Source of the DNA: a virus
Virus record (IMG/VR): IMGVR_UViG_3300045988_098456
Strand: one strand, 5' to 3'
DNA: 64,000 nucleotides
Shown: piece by piece, positions 2,057 to 35,477 of the stretch
Position numbering within the stretch: the first letter of the stretch is position 1
Layout: each line of letters begins with the position of its first letter
Made by a program: the position numbers and the translations under genes
Notes under the pieces: generated by a model
What the model was told of the DNA's origin: nothing
What the model saw: the letters and a program-made list of their open reading frames with translations, nothing else
Database searches by the model: none

Positions 2057-3316
2057 ATGAGATTGATATATAAATTTTATGCAAGACATACTGAGCAGCT
2101 TGATGCTTTGTTCAAGGTTTCAAACAATCTTTGGAACCAAGCCTTGTATGTGTTCCGACAGCGGCTTGATAGCGATGGCACTTGGATTTGGTACAATGAT
2201 ATGGACAAGATTATGAAGCAAACATTGAACCTTAATGGTGAATGTAACTATCGCCTATTGAAAGCCCAGTGTTCGCAGCAGATTTTGCGTGTCTTAGACA
2301 AAAGTATCAAGGCATATTGCAAGTCTATCAAAGATTGGAAGAAGAATCCCGAAAAGTACAAAGCAATGCACCGAATGCCAAGTTATCGCAAACGTGGTGG
2401 CATGTTCAACTTGTTTTATACAAAGCAAAGCGCTGCCATCAAGGATGGGCAGATAAGGTTGTCTAAAAACTTGCTTATAGCTGTTCCTCAATGGGAAAAG
2501 TACGGTGGCGAGGTTTCTAAGTTTAACCAAATCCGATTGATACCAGAGCGAGACAAAGTTAAGGTAGAAATTGTATATGAAAAAGAATTGGCATTGTCTG
2601 ATGTCGACAAGAACAAGTATGCCTCTATTGATTTGGGAATTGATAATCTTGCAACGATGGTCACTTCTGATGGTTGCATCATTTGGAGCGGCAAACACTT
2701 GAAGTCGTACAATAGGTATTTCAATAAGGAACTTGCAAGGTTGCAATCCGTTAAGGATTTGCAGGGCATCAAGCGAAGCACGAAACGCATCATGGCTTTG
2801 TATGCAAAGCGAGATAAACATTTCGAGGATGTGTTTCACAAGGTGAGTCGTCAGATAGTTGATGTGCTTGTTGAAAAGAGAATAGGAACGTTGACTGTAG
2901 GCTACAATGTCGGTTGGAAACAGAGTACCGACATGGGCAAGCGGAACAATCAGAAGTTTGTCCAGCTGCCTTTTGCGAGGTTGACATCCTATCTTGGCTA
3001 CAAGTGTAAATTGGCTGGTATCGACTTCATCGAGCATGAAGAAAGTTATACAAGCAAGTGTGATGCTCTTGCCTTGGAGGAGGTTTGCAAGCATGAGGAT
3101 TATTTAGGAAAGCGTGTCAAGCGTGGCTTGTTTCGCTCATCCGTTGGTAAAATAATCAACGCAGACCAAAATGGAGCTTTGAACATATTGAGAAAAGTAG
3201 TCGGTGATTCCGAGTTCGTTCGGATAATCGGTAGTGGGCACTCGTTATGCCCAGTGCGACACTGCAATCCGTTCAACCGGAGTGTAAGAGGCATAGATAA
3301 TGTATTAAAGAAATAG
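2057..3316 (+). CDS. tnpB: TnpB-like RuvC nuclease (IS200/IS605-family accessory protein, OMEGA-type), solo
   Basis: 419 aa. The RuvC triad is in order: IDLGIDNLATM (D), EHEESYTSKCD (E), NADQNGALNILRK (D). The zinc-finger segment between E and D is degenerate (2 Cys only). No tnpA is nearby. Confidence 0.8.
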   Translation: MRLIYKFYARHTEQLDALFKVSNNLWNQALYVFRQRLDSDGTWIWYNDMDKIMKQTLNLNGECNYRLLKAQCSQQILRVLDKSIKAYCKSIKDWKKNPEKYKAMHRMPSYRKRGGMFNLFYTKQSAAIKDGQIRLSKNLLIAVPQWEKYGGEVSKFNQIRLIPERDKVKVEIVYEKELALSDVDKNKYASIDLGIDNLATMVTSDGCIIWSGKHLKSYNRYFNKELARLQSVKDLQGIKRSTKRIMALYAKRDKHFEDVFHKVSRQIVDVLVEKRIGTLTVGYNVGWKQSTDMGKRNNQKFVQLPFARLTSYLGYKCKLAGIDFIEHEESYTSKCDALALEEVCKHEDYLGKRVKRGLFRSSVGKIINADQNGALNILRKVVGDSEFVRIIGSGHSLCPVRHCNPFNRSVRGIDNVLKK

Positions 3317-3350
3317 AATAAAACATAACACTTTTAATATTTTTAATAAC

Positions 3351-3791
3351 GTGATACAAAGATTTACGGAAATGTACTACGATGATGCGGTGCGCTTCGC
3401 TCAGTACATACAAGCTACTGAAGGTGGCGAAATAGAACTTGTAAAAGAAGATGCCGATGGTTTTCCTCTTCCCCCTAAGCATAAGATATTTGGTAACATG
3501 GTTAATTGTCTGAAGGTAAGGAACTTTGAAATTGCTTATTTAGAGCAAAGAAGAAACCCCGATGATGACAAGAAACATCGTAATCGAAATCTCTATCGCT
3601 ATATAATGGGGCAGAAGATTAAAGAGGTTAGAGAACTTAGTGGTATAACATTGGAGGAGCTGGCAGAAAAGTCCGGTTATAAGCCTAACAACATTCGTAA
3701 TATTGAGATGGGGCGTTTTAATGCCGATATTGATACGTTATGTAATATTGTTGAGGCTATGGATGCTCATTTTGAGGTTATGAAGGATTAA
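3351..3791 (+). CDS. XRE/Cro-type HTH protein
   Basis: The C-terminal half, MGQKIKEVRELSGITLEELAEKSGYKPNNIRNIEMG, is a Cro/CI-type helix-turn-helix. Confidence 0.6.
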   Translation: MIQRFTEMYYDDAVRFAQYIQATEGGEIELVKEDADGFPLPPKHKIFGNMVNCLKVRNFEIAYLEQRRNPDDDKKHRNRNLYRYIMGQKIKEVRELSGITLEELAEKSGYKPNNIRNIEMGRFNADIDTLCNIVEAMDAHFEVMKD

Positions 3792-3846
3792 AAGTTCTTT
3801 CGATATATGAAATATGTTTAAATACGGAAACAAAAGCATTAAAAAA

Positions 3847-3878
3847 CTTGCAAAATTAAGGTGTTATTCTTATCTTTG
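3847..3878 (+). promoter_or_regulatory. Promoter (-33 cttgca, -7 tatctttg)
   Basis: TTG-containing element about 20 nt upstream of a TAnnTTTG box. Confidence 0.6.
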
Positions 3879-3894
3879 CATCGTAATATAAAAA

Positions 3895-3907
3895 GGTGAG
3901 ACACACC
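3895..3907 (+). promoter_or_regulatory. Leader motif GGTGAGACACACC, copy 1
   Basis: Exact 13-mer, 20 nt before the ATG at 3927. GGTG/CACC can pair. Confidence 0.6.
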
Positions 3908-3926
3908 GAAACAACTGTATCGGATT

Positions 3927-4280
3927 ATGAATAAAGCATATTTGATTTTCAGCAAGAACACAAGCATTCAAGAATGTTGTACTTGGTTTCGTTATCGTGA
4001 CGAAGCTTTAAGATACAATAAAGAACATTTTGAGAACGTGTTTAAGGTACTGCAACATGAGTTTGATTCTTTGAAAGATGTTGACCCTTGCGAGCCGACA
4101 GAGTTTACGAAGTCTTCAAGATGCGAACATTGCTGGAGAAAGATAAAGAGTGATTATTTAAAACATATAGGAGATATGAATATGAAGAAAGAAGAAAATT
4201 TTGACCCACATGTTATTGATGACAGCGAGTTTGAAGAAGTTAGAAAGTCGTTTGAAGAGAAGTTTGGCGGAAAGAAATAG
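3927..4280 (+). CDS. Hypothetical protein
   Basis: 117-aa ORF directly behind the promoter and leader motif. Confidence 0.5.
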   Translation: MNKAYLIFSKNTSIQECCTWFRYRDEALRYNKEHFENVFKVLQHEFDSLKDVDPCEPTEFTKSSRCEHCWRKIKSDYLKHIGDMNMKKEENFDPHVIDDSEFEEVRKSFEEKFGGKK

Positions 4281-4381
4281 TATTTCACAATTAGCCAAAA
4301 GTGAGTTTAATAACCCGAACGCATTTGTTAGGATGAAAGAATTATGCTATCTTTGCATTGCGTTCCTTGAAATAATTAATT

Positions 4382-4897
4382 ATGAGTAATAACAAAGAAG
4401 ATTTTGATGCACAGGTAAGCGCATTTAAAGAGAAGTATCCCGATTTCAAGCCAGCCAAGGCTATTGAGGTTCTTAACTTGATTATGACAAGAAAGAATGC
4501 CAAGGAGATTCTTGAAGGCAAGAAGAAGGTTGAGTACAGAGCCTATACAGACCATTATATTGGTCGTTTGTTTGACAAGGATGTTTTGGAGTTCCTTAAA
4601 AAGCATGGTGAAGAAGAGGATGTTATCAAAGCGCAGGAGGATGGTATTGTTGACCCATTGCGAGTAGTAAAGACAATCCACTTCCATGATTATAACAACT
4701 CGTGGTATCTCGATTGTGATGTATTAGTAAATGATACTTGTATCGTTATGAAAGAAGATATTGATTTTCTTCACGAAAAGTATGATAGCCATGATTTGGA
4801 TGAAATGTACGAAGCGTTGGAGCTTAAAAAGGAAAAAGAGCGTCCTTTGTTTTTCTTCTTTGTTATTGACAAGGTAACAGAAACGACTCTAAAGTAG
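4382..4897 (+). CDS. Hypothetical protein, possibly ASCH/PUA-like
   Basis: EILEGKKKVEYRAY resembles the ASCH-domain N-terminal signature. Weak call made by eye. Confidence 0.4.
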   Translation: MSNNKEDFDAQVSAFKEKYPDFKPAKAIEVLNLIMTRKNAKEILEGKKKVEYRAYTDHYIGRLFDKDVLEFLKKHGEEEDVIKAQEDGIVDPLRVVKTIHFHDYNNSWYLDCDVLVNDTCIVMKEDIDFLHEKYDSHDLDEMYEALELKKEKERPLFFFFVIDKVTETTLK

Positions 4898-15260: not shown

Positions 15261-15839
15261 ATGGCAAAACCGAAATTTGATTACAATGGCGATGCTTTCT
15301 ACGATGAGATAGAACAGCTTGCAAAGCAAGGTCAGAAGGATTCTGAAATTGCCTACGCCCTTGGTTTGAAGTTTGGGGTTGACCTAAATCCACAGGTCTT
15401 CAACCGAATGAAAAACGGAAAATACGAGAATTGGAATGAAGACGAAAATGTGGAAAGAGGAGAAAGGATAACTCAATCCCTCGTGCGTGGCAGAGAGTTT
15501 ATCAATGCAATCGTGCGTGGAAGATTCCTTAAATGCGCCCTTGGAGGTGTCAAGGTAAAAGGCAAGACAACCACCAAAAGACACATGGTTGTAGATGGAG
15601 TTATGACAGATGATATAGTAGTGGAAACTAGAGAAACCGAGCAGGAGACCCCACCTAACGTACAAGCTCTTTCTACTTGGTTATTCCATTACGATATGAC
15701 TTGGAGAGAGATACAGAGAGGTAAGAAGGATGAAGAGGAAAAGGGCATTCCTTTTGACCCTAAGAAAGGTATATCCGTCAACAAGTGGATAGAAAGAGAG
15801 ATTGAGCAGGAAGCAGAAGAGCAAGGGGAGGGTGAATAA
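15261..15839 (+). CDS. Terminase small subunit candidate
   Basis: The N-terminus is HTH-like (DSEIAYALGL). The stop overlaps the TerL start (ATAATG). Assigned mainly by position. Confidence 0.5.
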   Translation: MAKPKFDYNGDAFYDEIEQLAKQGQKDSEIAYALGLKFGVDLNPQVFNRMKNGKYENWNEDENVERGERITQSLVRGREFINAIVRGRFLKCALGGVKVKGKTTTKRHMVVDGVMTDDIVVETRETEQETPPNVQALSTWLFHYDMTWREIQRGKKDEEEKGIPFDPKKGISVNKWIEREIEQEAEEQGEGE

Positions 15840-18079
15840 TGGCAAAAACACATTCCGTTTATTATCCGTTATATAATGACAAGACGCATTTCATTTACCT
15901 TATAACGGGAAGCCGTGCGTCAGGAAAAAGTTTCTCAGCTTCTCAGTTTATCGAAAGACTTACTTTTGAATACAATGCAGAAAGAAAGATAGCGCATAAG
16001 ATTCTTTATACACGTTATACGATGGTAAGTGCCGCTATTTCCGTAATTCCAGAGGTTAAAGAGAAGATAGAGATTGATGGTACACAGGATTACTTTAAGA
16101 ATACTAAGACAGATATAGTCAACAAAATGACAGGAGCTGAAATCATGTTCCGTGGTATTCATACGGCTAGTGGTAATCAGACTGCGAAGTTAAAGTCAAT
16201 CCATGGTGTGACTACGTTTGTCGTTGATGAGGCTGAGGAATGGACGAGTGAGGAGGATTTTGAGCGCATCATGCTTTCAATCCGTCAGAAAGGCTTGCAC
16301 AACCGAGTAATAATCATTATGAACCCTTGTGATTCAAATCATTGGGTATATAAGCGTTTCATCGAAAAGACACATAAAGAGGTGTATTTTGATGGCGTTC
16401 CCGTCCAGATCAGTACAGACCCTAGAGTACTTCATATACATACGACCTATCTTGATAATATAAAGCATCTTTCACCTGAGTTCCTTAACGAGGTATTAGA
16501 GATGAAGGAGAATGAACCAGAGAAATATGCTCATATAATGATAGGTAGATGGTCTGATGTATCTGAGGGTGCAATATTCAAGCATGTAGGCATCGTTGAC
16601 AAGTTCCCTAGCAATGCAAGGAAAGTAGCCATCGGAGTAGACTGGGGATATTCGAAAGACTATACTGCTATTGTGAAGTGTGGTATCGTAGACAATCGCC
16701 TATACATAGAGGAACTTTGCTATAGAACGGAAATGTTGTCCAGTGATATTATAAAATTCTTGCGCCCTTATGCGGATGATGGCTTGTTTGTGTATGCGGA
16801 TAGTGCTGACCCTAGGCTTATAGATGAGGTAGCTCTTGGTGGAATAGTTATATATGGAGCACAAAAGGGTGCTGGTTCTATATTGGCTGGTATTGACAAG
16901 ATGCAGACATTCGAAATCTTTGCGACTAGACAATCAGTCCATTTACAGAGCGAGTTCCGCAAATATGTGTGGGCAAAGGACAAGGATGGCAATTATATCA
17001 ATGTTCCCGAAGACCATGATAATCATTGCTTTACCGCAGACACATTAATTTTAACGAATCAAGGATATAAGCAGATTAAGGATATAAACATAGGTGATAT
17101 TGTATATAATTCTGACGGATGGCATCGTGTAAGCAAGACCTTTGATAACGGCATTCAAGAGGTGTGGTCTGCCATTATCGAGCTTGGCGACAGAACAATA
17201 GAGATTAATTCAACACCAAGTCATAAATTCAAAACAAAGGAAGGATGGAAACAATTACAAGACTTGACAGAAAAGGACGTACTTTATATATTCAGAAATT
17301 CAACGGACGAGAATATGTTAAATACCCAAAAGAAATGTATTTTAAGAATGGAGCGACAACTACTTGGCTTCATCGAGCAGTGTGGGAATATTATAATGGA
17401 TGTATTCCGAAAGGCTATCATGTACATCACAAAAACGAAAATGTTTTTGACAATGAAATTGATAATCTTGAACTCCTTGAAGGGCATCAGCATCTTTGTA
17501 TGCACATGCAAGAGAAACTACAGGATGCAGAATATATTGAGAAATTGCAAAAGAACATGGATTACGCAAGAGGGTTTGCAAATAAATGGCATGGTTCAGA
17601 AGAAGGAAAGAGATGGCATAGGTTGCATGGAATTGAGGTCTCAAAAAATTTATCTACACAAGAATATAAGTGTCTGTTTTGTGGCAAAACATATCAAGCA
17701 AAGACTAGTGGCAACCATAAATTTTGTTCTAACGCTTGTAAAACAAGGTACAGATACCATTCTAAGGTGGATAATGAAGAAAGGACTTGTAAATATTGTG
17801 GGGCGAAATTCTCTGTTAACAAATACATCAAAAAAGAGTATTGCTCAAACAAATGTTATTGGGAAGATAGACGAGCAAAAAATAAAGAGAATAAAGATAG
17901 TTAGAAAATATAAAGATCATGTGTACAATATGGAGGTTGAAGGAGAGCATGAATATTTTGCTAACAACATATTGGTTTCAAATTGCATTGATGCTGCACG
18001 GTATTATATTCTTGCCGTATTGCTCGGTAAAGTGATGAAGCCAAGAAAAGCATCTAAATCAGACTTAGGAGTGTACTAA
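15839..18079 (+). CDS. terL: Terminase large subunit, interrupted by an intein (exteins 15839..17026 and 17984..18079)
   Basis: Walker A GSRASGKS, Walker B VVDEAEE. The nuclease motif is split by the insertion: EDHDNH|...|CIDAARYY. Confidence 0.9.
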   Translation: MAKTHSVYYPLYNDKTHFIYLITGSRASGKSFSASQFIERLTFEYNAERKIAHKILYTRYTMVSAAISVIPEVKEKIEIDGTQDYFKNTKTDIVNKMTGAEIMFRGIHTASGNQTAKLKSIHGVTTFVVDEAEEWTSEEDFERIMLSIRQKGLHNRVIIIMNPCDSNHWVYKRFIEKTHKEVYFDGVPVQISTDPRVLHIHTTYLDNIKHLSPEFLNEVLEMKENEPEKYAHIMIGRWSDVSEGAIFKHVGIVDKFPSNARKVAIGVDWGYSKDYTAIVKCGIVDNRLYIEELCYRTEMLSSDIIKFLRPYADDGLFVYADSADPRLIDEVALGGIVIYGAQKGAGSILAGIDKMQTFEIFATRQSVHLQSEFRKYVWAKDKDGNYINVPEDHDNHCFTADTLILTNQGYKQIKDINIGDIVYNSDGWHRVSKTFDNGIQEVWSAIIELGDRTIEINSTPSHKFKTKEGWKQLQDLTEKDVLYIFRNSTDENMLNTQKKCILRMERQLLGFIEQCGNIIMDVFRKAIMYITKTKMFLTMKLIILNSLKGISIFVCTCKRNYRMQNILRNCKRTWITQEGLQINGMVQKKERDGIGCMELRSQKIYLHKNISVCFVAKHIKQRLVATINFVLTLVKQGTDTILRWIMKKGLVNIVGRNSLLTNTSKKSIAQTNVIGKIDEQKIKRIKIVRKYKDHVYNMEVEGEHEYFANNILVSNCIDAARYYILAVLLGKVMKPRKASKSDLGVY
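17027..17983 (+). mobile_element. Intein (319 codons) in TerL
   Basis: Block A CFTADTLILT, block B TPSHKF, C-terminal VYNMEVEGEHEYFANNILVSN followed by Cys+1. Coordinates are in frame with terL. Confidence 0.8.
17245..17904 (+). CDS. HNH homing endonuclease encoded in an alternative frame inside the intein
   Basis: HRAVWEYYNGCIPKGYHVHHKNENVFDNEIDNLELLEGHQH, plus two CxxC..(Y/F)CSNxC zinc-ribbon repeats. Its frame differs from terL. Confidence 0.8.
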   Translation: METITRLDRKGRTLYIQKFNGREYVKYPKEMYFKNGATTTWLHRAVWEYYNGCIPKGYHVHHKNENVFDNEIDNLELLEGHQHLCMHMQEKLQDAEYIEKLQKNMDYARGFANKWHGSEEGKRWHRLHGIEVSKNLSTQEYKCLFCGKTYQAKTSGNHKFCSNACKTRYRYHSKVDNEERTCKYCGAKFSVNKYIKKEYCSNKCYWEDRRAKNKENKDS

Positions 18080-18190
18080 ATGACAAATATAATTACTTTT
18101 GTAATAAAAATACAAGTATTTAATTATTAGATTGTTAGTGTAAGTATGCTATAAAGGTAGATAAAAGTCATATGTAAATAAAAAAGATTG

Positions 18191-34712: not shown

Positions 34713-34952
34713 CTAATAGCGATAACCGCCACCTCTGCGACCACCATGTCTTTCACCATAGCGGTCATCATCGTCATCATCCCAATTGTCTCGGTAATCC
34801 GGCATTGGGCTTCTGTGACCCATTCGTCCATACTTGTCATCCCCCATTTCATCAATGCAGTGCATGAGTTTACCACCATACTTAAGCATCTTCTCTACAA
34901 GTTCCGACATTTCATTTACCTTGTTTTCGGTAATTTCTATCATGTATCCCAT
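34713..34952 (-). CDS. Small protein with a poly-Asp and Gly/Arg/Tyr tail
   Basis: ...NWDDDDDDRYGERHGGRRGGGYRY. Confidence 0.4.
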   Translation of the reverse strand: MGYMIEITENKVNEMSELVEKMLKYGGKLMHCIDEMGDDKYGRMGHRSPMPDYRDNWDDDDDDRYGERHGGRRGGGYRY

Positions 34953-34958
34953 AATGAT

Positions 34959-35477
34959 TTACTTTTTTGTATTAACTTTTTCCAAAGCCACTGACAACAT
35001 AGACTTAATATCGGTCAAAGTTCCCTTCATTCCGCTAACCTCGCTTTTGAGATTATTGATGTCTTCTTCCTGTTGTCTGTCTTTGGCTATTTGTGGATTC
35101 AATACGGCACGCATCTTTGCGCACTCTTCCATAACCTTTTTGTGGTATGGCTCGCTTTCCACAATCTCCTTAGAATGCCGATACATAGCCTCAACTTCCG
35201 CATCCATAGCTTCACGGCTTTCAGAAACCACGAGGTTTTCCGAATTTGCAATTTGCATATTGGATGGGAGTTGTTTGAACTCCATTTGTTCATTAGGCAA
35301 TTTTACGACAACATCAACGGTAGTCTCCATTGGTTGTGGGTTGAATTGCCCAGGAGTATATGTCGGGAACTTAGGTTGTGGGTTACTGACCGACACAACC
35401 TGTCCGATTTTAAGACTTGGGTTTTCACCCTTGTCAAGCACATAAAATATGCTGTTAGGTCGAAGTCCTTGAAACAT
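34959..35477 (-). CDS. Hypothetical protein with a C-terminal coiled coil
   Basis: 172 aa. Confidence 0.45.
   Translation of the reverse strand: MFQGLRPNSIFYVLDKGENPSLKIGQVVSVSNPQPKFPTYTPGQFNPQPMETTVDVVVKLPNEQMEFKQLPSNMQIANSENLVVSESREAMDAEVEAMYRHSKEIVESEPYHKKVMEECAKMRAVLNPQIAKDRQQEEDINNLKSEVSGMKGTLTDIKSMLSVALEKVNTKK

Follow-up and report, generated by a model that had tools for sequence, protein, structure and literature searches.

Can one stretch of phage DNA hold, in one frame, an essential gene interrupted by an intein and, in another frame, a complete homing-endonuclease gene? This question is raised by the gene for the large terminase subunit (terL) in the IMG/VR virus record IMGVR_UViG_3300045988_098456, from which a stretch of 64,000 nucleotides was analyzed (the window; all positions are numbered on its full length unless stated otherwise). 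Here terL is a single open reading frame (ORF) that carries an intein, and between the two halves of the intein's Hint domain lies an HNH endonuclease gene in the −1 frame; the terL-frame translation of this gene is referred to below as the filler. We propose that the locus is a mobile composite element, in which a class 1 TerL intein carries a separately translated −1-frame HNH homing-endonuclease gene and the terL-frame filler is spliced out, and we assign this reading a probability of roughly 0.85.

A TerL intein with a nuclease gene in another frame

The limits of the insertion are given by a human faecal phage contig (MT835636.1), whose terL is 94.9% identical, aligns in two pieces and lacks exactly the intein; its empty insertion site reads GAAGACCATGATAACCAT|TTGATAGATGCTGC. 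The insertion falls within the TerL nuclease motif DHDNH|(L/C)IDAARYY, and the +1 codon is TGC (Cys) in the window versus TTG (Leu) in the empty allele. The N-extein matches the Pfam families Terminase_3 (residues 17–236) and Terminase_3C (residues 268–400) and is colinear with the intein-less allele L001. A sequence-only reading of the window had assigned the coordinates of terL, intein and HNH gene correctly throughout, and its identification of an intein with Cys1, TxxH and a ...SN|C junction at the nuclease motif is borne out.

The class 1 Hint motifs comprise C1, TxxH (T63-P-S-H66) and HEYFANNILVS-N319, followed by C+1. Pfam Intein_splicing is matched marginally (36.3 bits against a cut-off of 35.8), with the match split over terL residues 427–715; relatives score 39–59 bits, and matches of the window terL to Hint_2, Hint and PT-HINT fall under the Pfam cut-offs. 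Models from AlphaFold2 (AF2) place β-strands in residues 1–90 of the N-terminal half (pLDDT, or predicted local distance difference test, 66–79), which is kept in a natural mini-intein (L088), and at residues 286–318 in the C-terminal half, which is conserved among relatives. The intein is predicted to splice, because TerL is essential and viable isolate phages carry the same element.

The HNH gene is at offset 2 relative to terL ((17245−15839) mod 3 = 2). Its product matches HNH_3 alone in Pfam (46.7 bits against a cut-off of 24.8, E = 2.4e-12) and PHROG 15471 'HNH endonuclease' (5.9e-35), and its AF2 model has a mean pLDDT of 94.4; the description of a free-standing-type HNH gene between the Hint halves thus stands. 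Residues H43, H61, H62, N70, N74, H83 and H87 of the catalytic core are invariant among the family, and a profile match to I-HmuI (1u3e) was obtained. The two zinc ribbons are presumed to be DNA-binding modules; their structural matches to the YacG-like 1lv3 and 4tma are weak.

Table 1. Features of the terL locus in the window, with split and out-of-frame loci from other records for comparison
Feature	Position	Strand	Description
terL	15839..18079	+	single ORF, 746 aa, zero internal stops
terL N-extein	15839..17026	+	ATPase domain and most of the RNase H-like nuclease domain; ends ...PEDHDNH
Intein	17027..17983	+	terL frame; 319 aa (957 nt), Cys1 ... Ser318-Asn319
Hint N-terminal half	17027..17299	+	block A CFTADTLILT, block B T63-P-S-H66, then KFKTKEGWKQLQDL
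Intein codons Gly73-Trp74 (GGA TGG)	17243..17248	+	bases 3–5 are the HNH ATG (17245–17247); the HNH frame reads Met-Glu
HNH homing-endonuclease ORF	17245..17904	+	219 aa plus TAG, −1 frame of terL
terL-frame filler	17300..17875	+	about 192 codons, stop-free, unconserved at the protein level; +1-frame read-through of the HNH gene
HNH catalytic core	17365..17505	+	HNH residues 41–87, LHRAVWE...GYHVHHKN...NLELL...HxxxH; Pfam HNH_3 over 41–78
Two zinc-ribbon repeats	17671..17856	+	C143/C146/C161/C165 and C182/C185/C200/C204; invariant Cys columns
Hint C-terminal half	17876..17983	+	blocks F and G, VYNMEVEGEHEYFANNILVSN
terL C-extein	17984..18079	+	CIDAARYY... to stop; codon 17984–17986 is the +1 Cys nucleophile
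L002, Lactobacillus phage CL2	terL 506–1954; HNH 1967–2590; IntC ORF within 2487–2774		apparent fractured terL
L102, L104, L050			apparent fractured terL; Staphylococcus prophages and viral contig
L093, Brochothrix phage BL3			apparent fractured terL; gp2/gp3
L174, Brucella phage Tb	terL 2347–4893; HNH 3170–3856		HNH out of frame inside TerL intein

Selection for an open terL frame

Over the HNH ORF the terL frame contains no stop codon, the third frame 28 and the reverse frames 6–11. TerL must be made by reading through the filler, since terL is one uninterrupted ORF, and the sequence-only reading had argued that so long an open frame would not arise by chance. Its assumed stop frequency holds: the +1-frame stop rate in the window's genes is 0.065 per codon, or one in about 15 codons, from which ~14 stops would be expected over 219 codons. 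The single-locus case is weaker than was claimed, as fixing the HNH protein and randomizing its synonymous codons lowers the expectation to a mean of 4.4 stops (P(0) = 0.004). On its own, this locus is suggestive, not overwhelming; the comparative data are decisive. An IMG/VR scan recovered 80 loci, 69 of which have zero stops in the frame +1 to HNH, this frame being part of an ORF of 280 or more codons (shorter at contig ends); the 69 reduce to 33 distinct sequences (nucleotide identity ≤95%). In these 33 nested viral loci, 0 stops were observed versus 4.4 expected from synonymous randomization with codon usage specific to each locus, while 17 non-nested homologs from the same protein family have 6.1 observed versus 5.9 expected. 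Selection therefore keeps the frame open, and only where terL needs the read-through.

What is selected in each frame was resolved by the ratio of nonsynonymous to synonymous substitution rates (dN/dS; Nei–Gojobori) in four pairs of related nested loci. Values in the HNH frame are 0.19, 0.12 and 0.07, the fourth pair being saturated at synonymous sites, whereas in the terL frame the same nucleotides give 1.41, 0.76, 1.26 and 1.08; substitutions at the three HNH codon positions number 100/71/238. Purifying selection therefore acts on HNH, and the filler, with a dN/dS of about 1, is constrained solely to openness. The earlier description of the filler as featureless fits these values: a Pfam search of it returned nothing significant, and AF2 assigns pLDDT <50 to intein residues 92–283. 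The filler (17297–17881, terL frame) does match phrog_30251 'terminase large subunit' (E = 8e-7); the reason is that alternate-frame read-through of the HNH gene is already part of public TerL entries. Truly dual-coding sequence is confined to the two ends of the HNH gene, where ~18 codons (5′) and ~9 codons (3′) overlap real Hint sequence.

One candidate explanation for the universal offset of 2, namely that the HNH +1 frame is the poorest in stops (~4–6 versus 20–30), was set aside as describing a tendency only; Brucella phage Tb, discussed below, uses the other offset.

Expression, mobility and competing explanations

Among 18 representatives of the window subfamily, the HNH ATG always overlaps a conserved intein Gly-Trp pair 3′ of block B. 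Gly is found in 16 of the 18 and is encoded by GGA in all 16, a codon that makes up 34% of the Gly codons in these genes; the two non-Gly codons (AAA and GAA) end in A too. Most members have an HNH-frame stop 1–6 codons upstream of the ATG, located at 17224–17226 in the window. Near the start codon the RNA is rich in A and lacks structure (fold z-score 0.31), and a sigma-70 promoter scan found none upstream of 17245, with total matches no more numerous than in shuffled sequences. These features make translation that initiates within the terL message the most likely source of HNH, and a minor frameshift fusion product may accompany it.

Taken as a mechanism, the composite element would operate as follows. 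The class 1 intein occupies the TerL nuclease motif (...DHDNH|C-IDAARYY...), and the loop in which ordinary inteins hold an in-frame endonuclease domain is taken up by a complete separate gene in the −1 frame, encoding an I-HmuI-like HNH_3 core and two zinc ribbons. Ribosomes in the terL frame would pass through this gene to produce a filler of ~190 residues, probably unstructured, that protein splicing would discard together with the Hint domain, leaving the lack of a stop codon as the sole requirement on it. The nuclease would be made by internal initiation at the ATG at 17245, in its A-rich unstructured stretch. Most likely it would cut element-free terL alleles during co-infection, with the nuclease-motif region of terL as the probable target, upon which intein and nuclease would be copied in (homing).

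Mobility is apparent from presence/absence polymorphism and from identity values. Between the window and contig L089, the exteins are 78–83% identical and the intein parts 93–94%, and the closest extein, that of L001 (91–96% identity), is empty; intein identity above extein identity, together with an empty closest extein, therefore indicates recent homing or transfer. An intein-frame search of a 5.8-billion-protein set returned five matches, mostly fragments, so few because gene callers split such loci, and two of its products are deletion derivatives when aligned to window positions 16900–18100. L088 (P0057) is a mini-intein of the same intein that lacks 17299–17859 and keeps the terL frame. 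L089 (P0055) has a 351-nt deletion (17310–17660) that removes the HNH catalytic half and likewise keeps the reading frame. On alignment evidence, recent transfer and deletion derivatives together read as a classical homing cycle. L089 also has a TAG inside its terL N-extein (GAQ*GAGS), so terL there may be a pseudogene or contain an assembly error.

Four other explanations were weighed. An assembly or sequencing artefact would mean that HNH is truly in frame with the Hint halves, as in a canonical bifunctional intein, and was displaced by two compensating indels. The window is indeed represented by a single assembly, and the metagenomic relatives P0014 (L087, ~4× coverage) and P0015 show frame switches; nevertheless, the offset is repeated in 71 distinct loci, four of them from isolate phages that were sequenced independently, and none of the 160 collection loci (80 viral, 80 genomic) places HNH in the frame of both Hint halves. 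The HNH ORF moreover begins and ends with codons of its own and is preceded by an in-frame stop, and a pair of indels would not keep the wrong frame free of stops, given the expectation at this locus. We regard an artefact as almost certainly the wrong answer. A programmed −1 frameshift near 17230–17245, yielding a TerL-N/Hint-N/HNH fusion or, through a second shift, a canonical in-frame intein with no independent HNH translation, is unlikely. Such a shift would suit the −1 frame of HNH, the A-rich upstream sequence and the AAAAAA runs of a few relatives (L041, L044), but no slippery heptamer X_XXY_YYZ is present in the window between the upstream stop and the ATG (17227–17245) or conserved over the 18 representatives, and no stable structure was predicted. 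The invariant third-base A that forms the ATG argues for initiation, and a TerL made by a double shift would not require an open zero frame, yet that frame is open everywhere.

It is also distinctly unlikely that the HNH ORF is a decaying relic in a vertically inherited intein with a long linker, its terL frame open only because TerL is essential. The deletion derivatives L088 and L089 would be expected from such decay, which the homing cycle itself predicts; against it stand the low HNH dN/dS, the intact catalytic His and Asn residues and eight zinc-ligand Cys, the confident model of the protein, and the evidence of recent transfer. We consider it very improbable that the filler is a functional domain, such as a regulator of splicing or packaging, in which case 190 codons would be truly dual-coding. 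The filler is part of every translated TerL precursor, and the phrog_30251 match might seem to favor a function, but that match is explained by TerL entries with the same read-through, and a neutral dN/dS, low pLDDT and lack of a Pfam domain all speak against one. A natural mini-intein exists without the filler, split relatives carry stops there at the neutral rate, and the overlap with real Hint sequence is limited to the two ends of HNH.

The mobile composite element remains our preferred reading, and several observations weigh against it. Nested loci share ancestry, and their per-locus probabilities cannot simply be multiplied. The AF2 result for the filler comes from a shallow alignment of six sequences. 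Structural similarity of HNH to I-HmuI is weak (Foldseek against PDB E = 0.17; profile E = 0.0046), the weak Foldseek matches being attributable to the extended multi-domain shape of the HNH model. The penultimate intein residue is Ser where His is usual, an SN|C junction also found in the viable isolates TJE1 and phiCDHM19. Finally, the purine-rich run 5′ of the ATG is too near for a classical Shine–Dalgarno site, and motifs resembling such sites precede only ~25% of the window's genes (13/52, background 12%), which makes the initiation mechanism uncertain.

A widespread family and its precedents

The 71 distinct nested loci comprise the 33 from IMG/VR, 37 from GTDB genomes and Rhodobacteraceae phage LS06; all 71 have the same HNH family out of frame at the same offset, with zero terL-frame stops. 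The checks that the sequence-only reading had named as able to refute it thus turned out in favor of it, as did the filler dN/dS. A tblastn search with HNH led to the annotated terL of Tetrasphaera phage TJE1, Clostridium phage phiCDHM19 and Acinetobacter phage Highwayman (counted within the 33), in each of which terL is continuous, the intein runs C...SN|C or HN|C and HNH lies at offset 2; phage LS06 has the same arrangement. The contigs that hold the GTDB loci carry assignments to Bacteroides, Prevotella, Corynebacterium, Frankia, Nocardiopsis, Chloroflexota, Acidobacteria, Nitrospiraceae, Myxococcota, candidate phyla and three archaeal metagenome-assembled genomes (MAGs), labels that may be unreliable owing to MAG binning. 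Among nested relatives, the closest are those on MAG contigs of Bacteroides and Prevotella. Ten enveloping ORFs were tested; each of them is TerL, and nine match Intein_splicing and/or Hint_2, mostly split by a gap of ~250 residues; in the tenth (L074), terminase domains alone were matched. The loci share a homologous insertion site (...(D/N)H | C-x-D-A-x-R-Y), with a few located about three or four residues downstream.

Several individual relatives have features of their own. L007 (1054–4323) has a stop-free terL frame of 1090 residues, limited by the contig at its 5′ end, with two inteins, of which the one in the ATPase half is of the canonical LAGLIDADG type and the one at the nuclease motif is HNH-overprinted. 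In L087 (P0014, gene 252–1289) and P0015, ORFs begin as HNH, switch to the terL frame and continue through filler, Hint C-terminal half and C-extein, which could reflect indel errors at low coverage (~4×) or real frameshifts creating a split arrangement translated from the HNH start. For L091 (Clostridium phage phiCD119, 778–2610), the annotation gives terL as truncated; compared with phiCDHM19, which is near-identical, its frames are broken, either by errors in an older sequence or by degradation of the element. L097, from a Methanimicrococcus MAG contig, is of the nested type with one terL-frame stop across HNH and an ORF for the C-terminal intein half (IntC) downstream, and could represent either a recent switch from cis to split or an error. 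Distant HNH matches (24% identity) in Vibrio phages 1.245.O, 1.238.A and 1.238.B (H54–H58) underlie features annotated 'hedgehog/hint domain protein | terminase large subunit' and probably represent another nested or split case.

Two further arrangements of the same nuclease family were found. At ~30 loci, an ORF for the TerL N-terminal part and the N-terminal intein half (IntN) ends at a stop and is followed by the HNH gene and then by a small ORF for IntC and the C-extein, with the pattern ...VYNMEVE.HHN..V.GG.I.HN|CIDATRY; where an IntC ORF was found, it overlaps the HNH 3′ end in the +1 frame at 30 of 35 loci. Examples are Lactobacillus phage CL2, Brochothrix phage BL3 and Staphylococcus, Aerococcus and Peptoniphilus prophages. 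To judge by gene order and motifs, these look like fractured terL genes with split inteins around an HNH_3 gene, a nature unannotated in the records seen. At about a dozen other loci, HNH lies just 3′ of an intact, intein-less terL, no more than a few hundred nucleotides from the intein site elsewhere (immediately downstream in L057, L098, L106, L115, L148, L156, L160 and L165), and therefore fits a free-standing nuclease that targets the terL 3′ end. The window terL is not fractured, being one uninterrupted ORF with IntN and IntC on one polypeptide. We give even odds to a broader interpretation, that the window represents the contiguous form within a very widespread and apparently undescribed family of TerL inteins with HNH_3. 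In this family one nuclease lineage, at one site near the terL 3′ end, would occur as a free-standing gene downstream of an intact terL, as a −1-frame gene inside a cis-splicing intein whose terL frame must stay open, and between the halves of a split intein in a fractured terL, as in Lactobacillus phage CL2 and Staphylococcus prophages. If true, this would provide a natural series in which the model of a free-standing nuclease that invades an intein and then breaks the gene is directly testable, and new natural split inteins could be obtained from the family.

The sequence-only reading did not recognize the architecture as described, and on this point of novelty it went too far. In Brucella phage Tb/Pr, an HNH gene out of frame within a TerL intein was described in 2015 (PMC4422536), and RefSeq NC_019446 (phage Tb) has 'terminase large subunit, intein present' overlapping 'putative HNH endonuclease'. 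As in the window, terL is continuous there; unlike the window, the intein lies in the TerL ATPase half (residues ~181–506), the offset is 1 and the nuclease belongs to Pfam PF01844 with zinc ribbons N-terminal to HNH. The window and Tb nucleases have no significant similarity (BLASTP E = 0.035). Gosselin, Arsenault and Gogarten (bioRxiv 10.1101/2025.01.02.630785) report actinobacteriophage inteins, some in TerL, with an endonuclease-VII-like nuclease in 'reading frame 3', and propose as their origin a free-standing nuclease gene invading an intein. These share with the window a same-strand nuclease ORF between splicing blocks, offset 2 and an open host frame, but differ in nuclease family. The possibility that the two families are one was rejected, as the translated Keitabear ORF carries the Endonuclease_7 motif DHDHETGRVRGLLCNDCN, in contrast to HNH_3 and two zinc ribbons in the window. 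In a tblastn search with the TJE1 HNH, which matched 455 records, TJE1 itself is the sole actinophage in the best 60. The survey of Gosselin et al. covers PhagesDB only, whereas the window's HNH family spans many phyla.

Other precedents share parts of the arrangement. The ShiLan insertion in mycobacteriophage DNA methylases (Arsenault et al. 2025, PMC11855218) is an actively homing element with a hidden out-of-frame HNH and a stop-free host frame; it has no Hint or splicing domain, and its read-through remains in the mature protein, whereas the window's Hint halves would excise theirs. Dassa et al. (2009, PMC2677866) described fractured genes in which a nuclease gene, GIY-YIG or Vsr-like, lies between split-intein halves, and HNH cases were predicted. 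The order N-extein/IntN, nuclease gene, IntC/C-extein is that of the window, in which terL is unbroken and the nuclease is of another type; by analogy, the window looks like a contiguous intermediate of their gene-breaking model. Inteins with in-frame HNH have a Hint domain and HNH nuclease at the same loop, with the nuclease part of the excised polypeptide, unlike the separate polypeptide of the window, and the title of a 2026 preprint refers to an out-of-frame nuclease in a cyanobacterial dnaX intein. An out-of-frame nuclease in an intein is thus a rare but already recognized layout, to which the window adds a different nuclease lineage; no description of the HNH_3/zinc-ribbon TerL-intein family, or of TJE1 in an intein context, was found in the literature searched.

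Elsewhere in the window, 34834–35477 holds an antisense ORF pair, in which a + strand ORF of 203 aa, rich in Ser, Leu and Ile, lies opposite a plausible − strand ORF of 172 aa (34959–35477). The + strand member is probably a shadow ORF.

The nested loci represent overprinting under minimal constraint, in which purifying selection acts on a folded nuclease in one frame and the other need only avoid stops, as would suffice because protein splicing discards its product. Gene callers and databases mishandle such loci, some records truncating terL or calling only HNH. For intein evolution, the mini-intein, deletion, free-standing and split relatives document steps of nuclease gain and intein splitting, and for biotechnology, the split relatives are candidate natural trans-splicing inteins.

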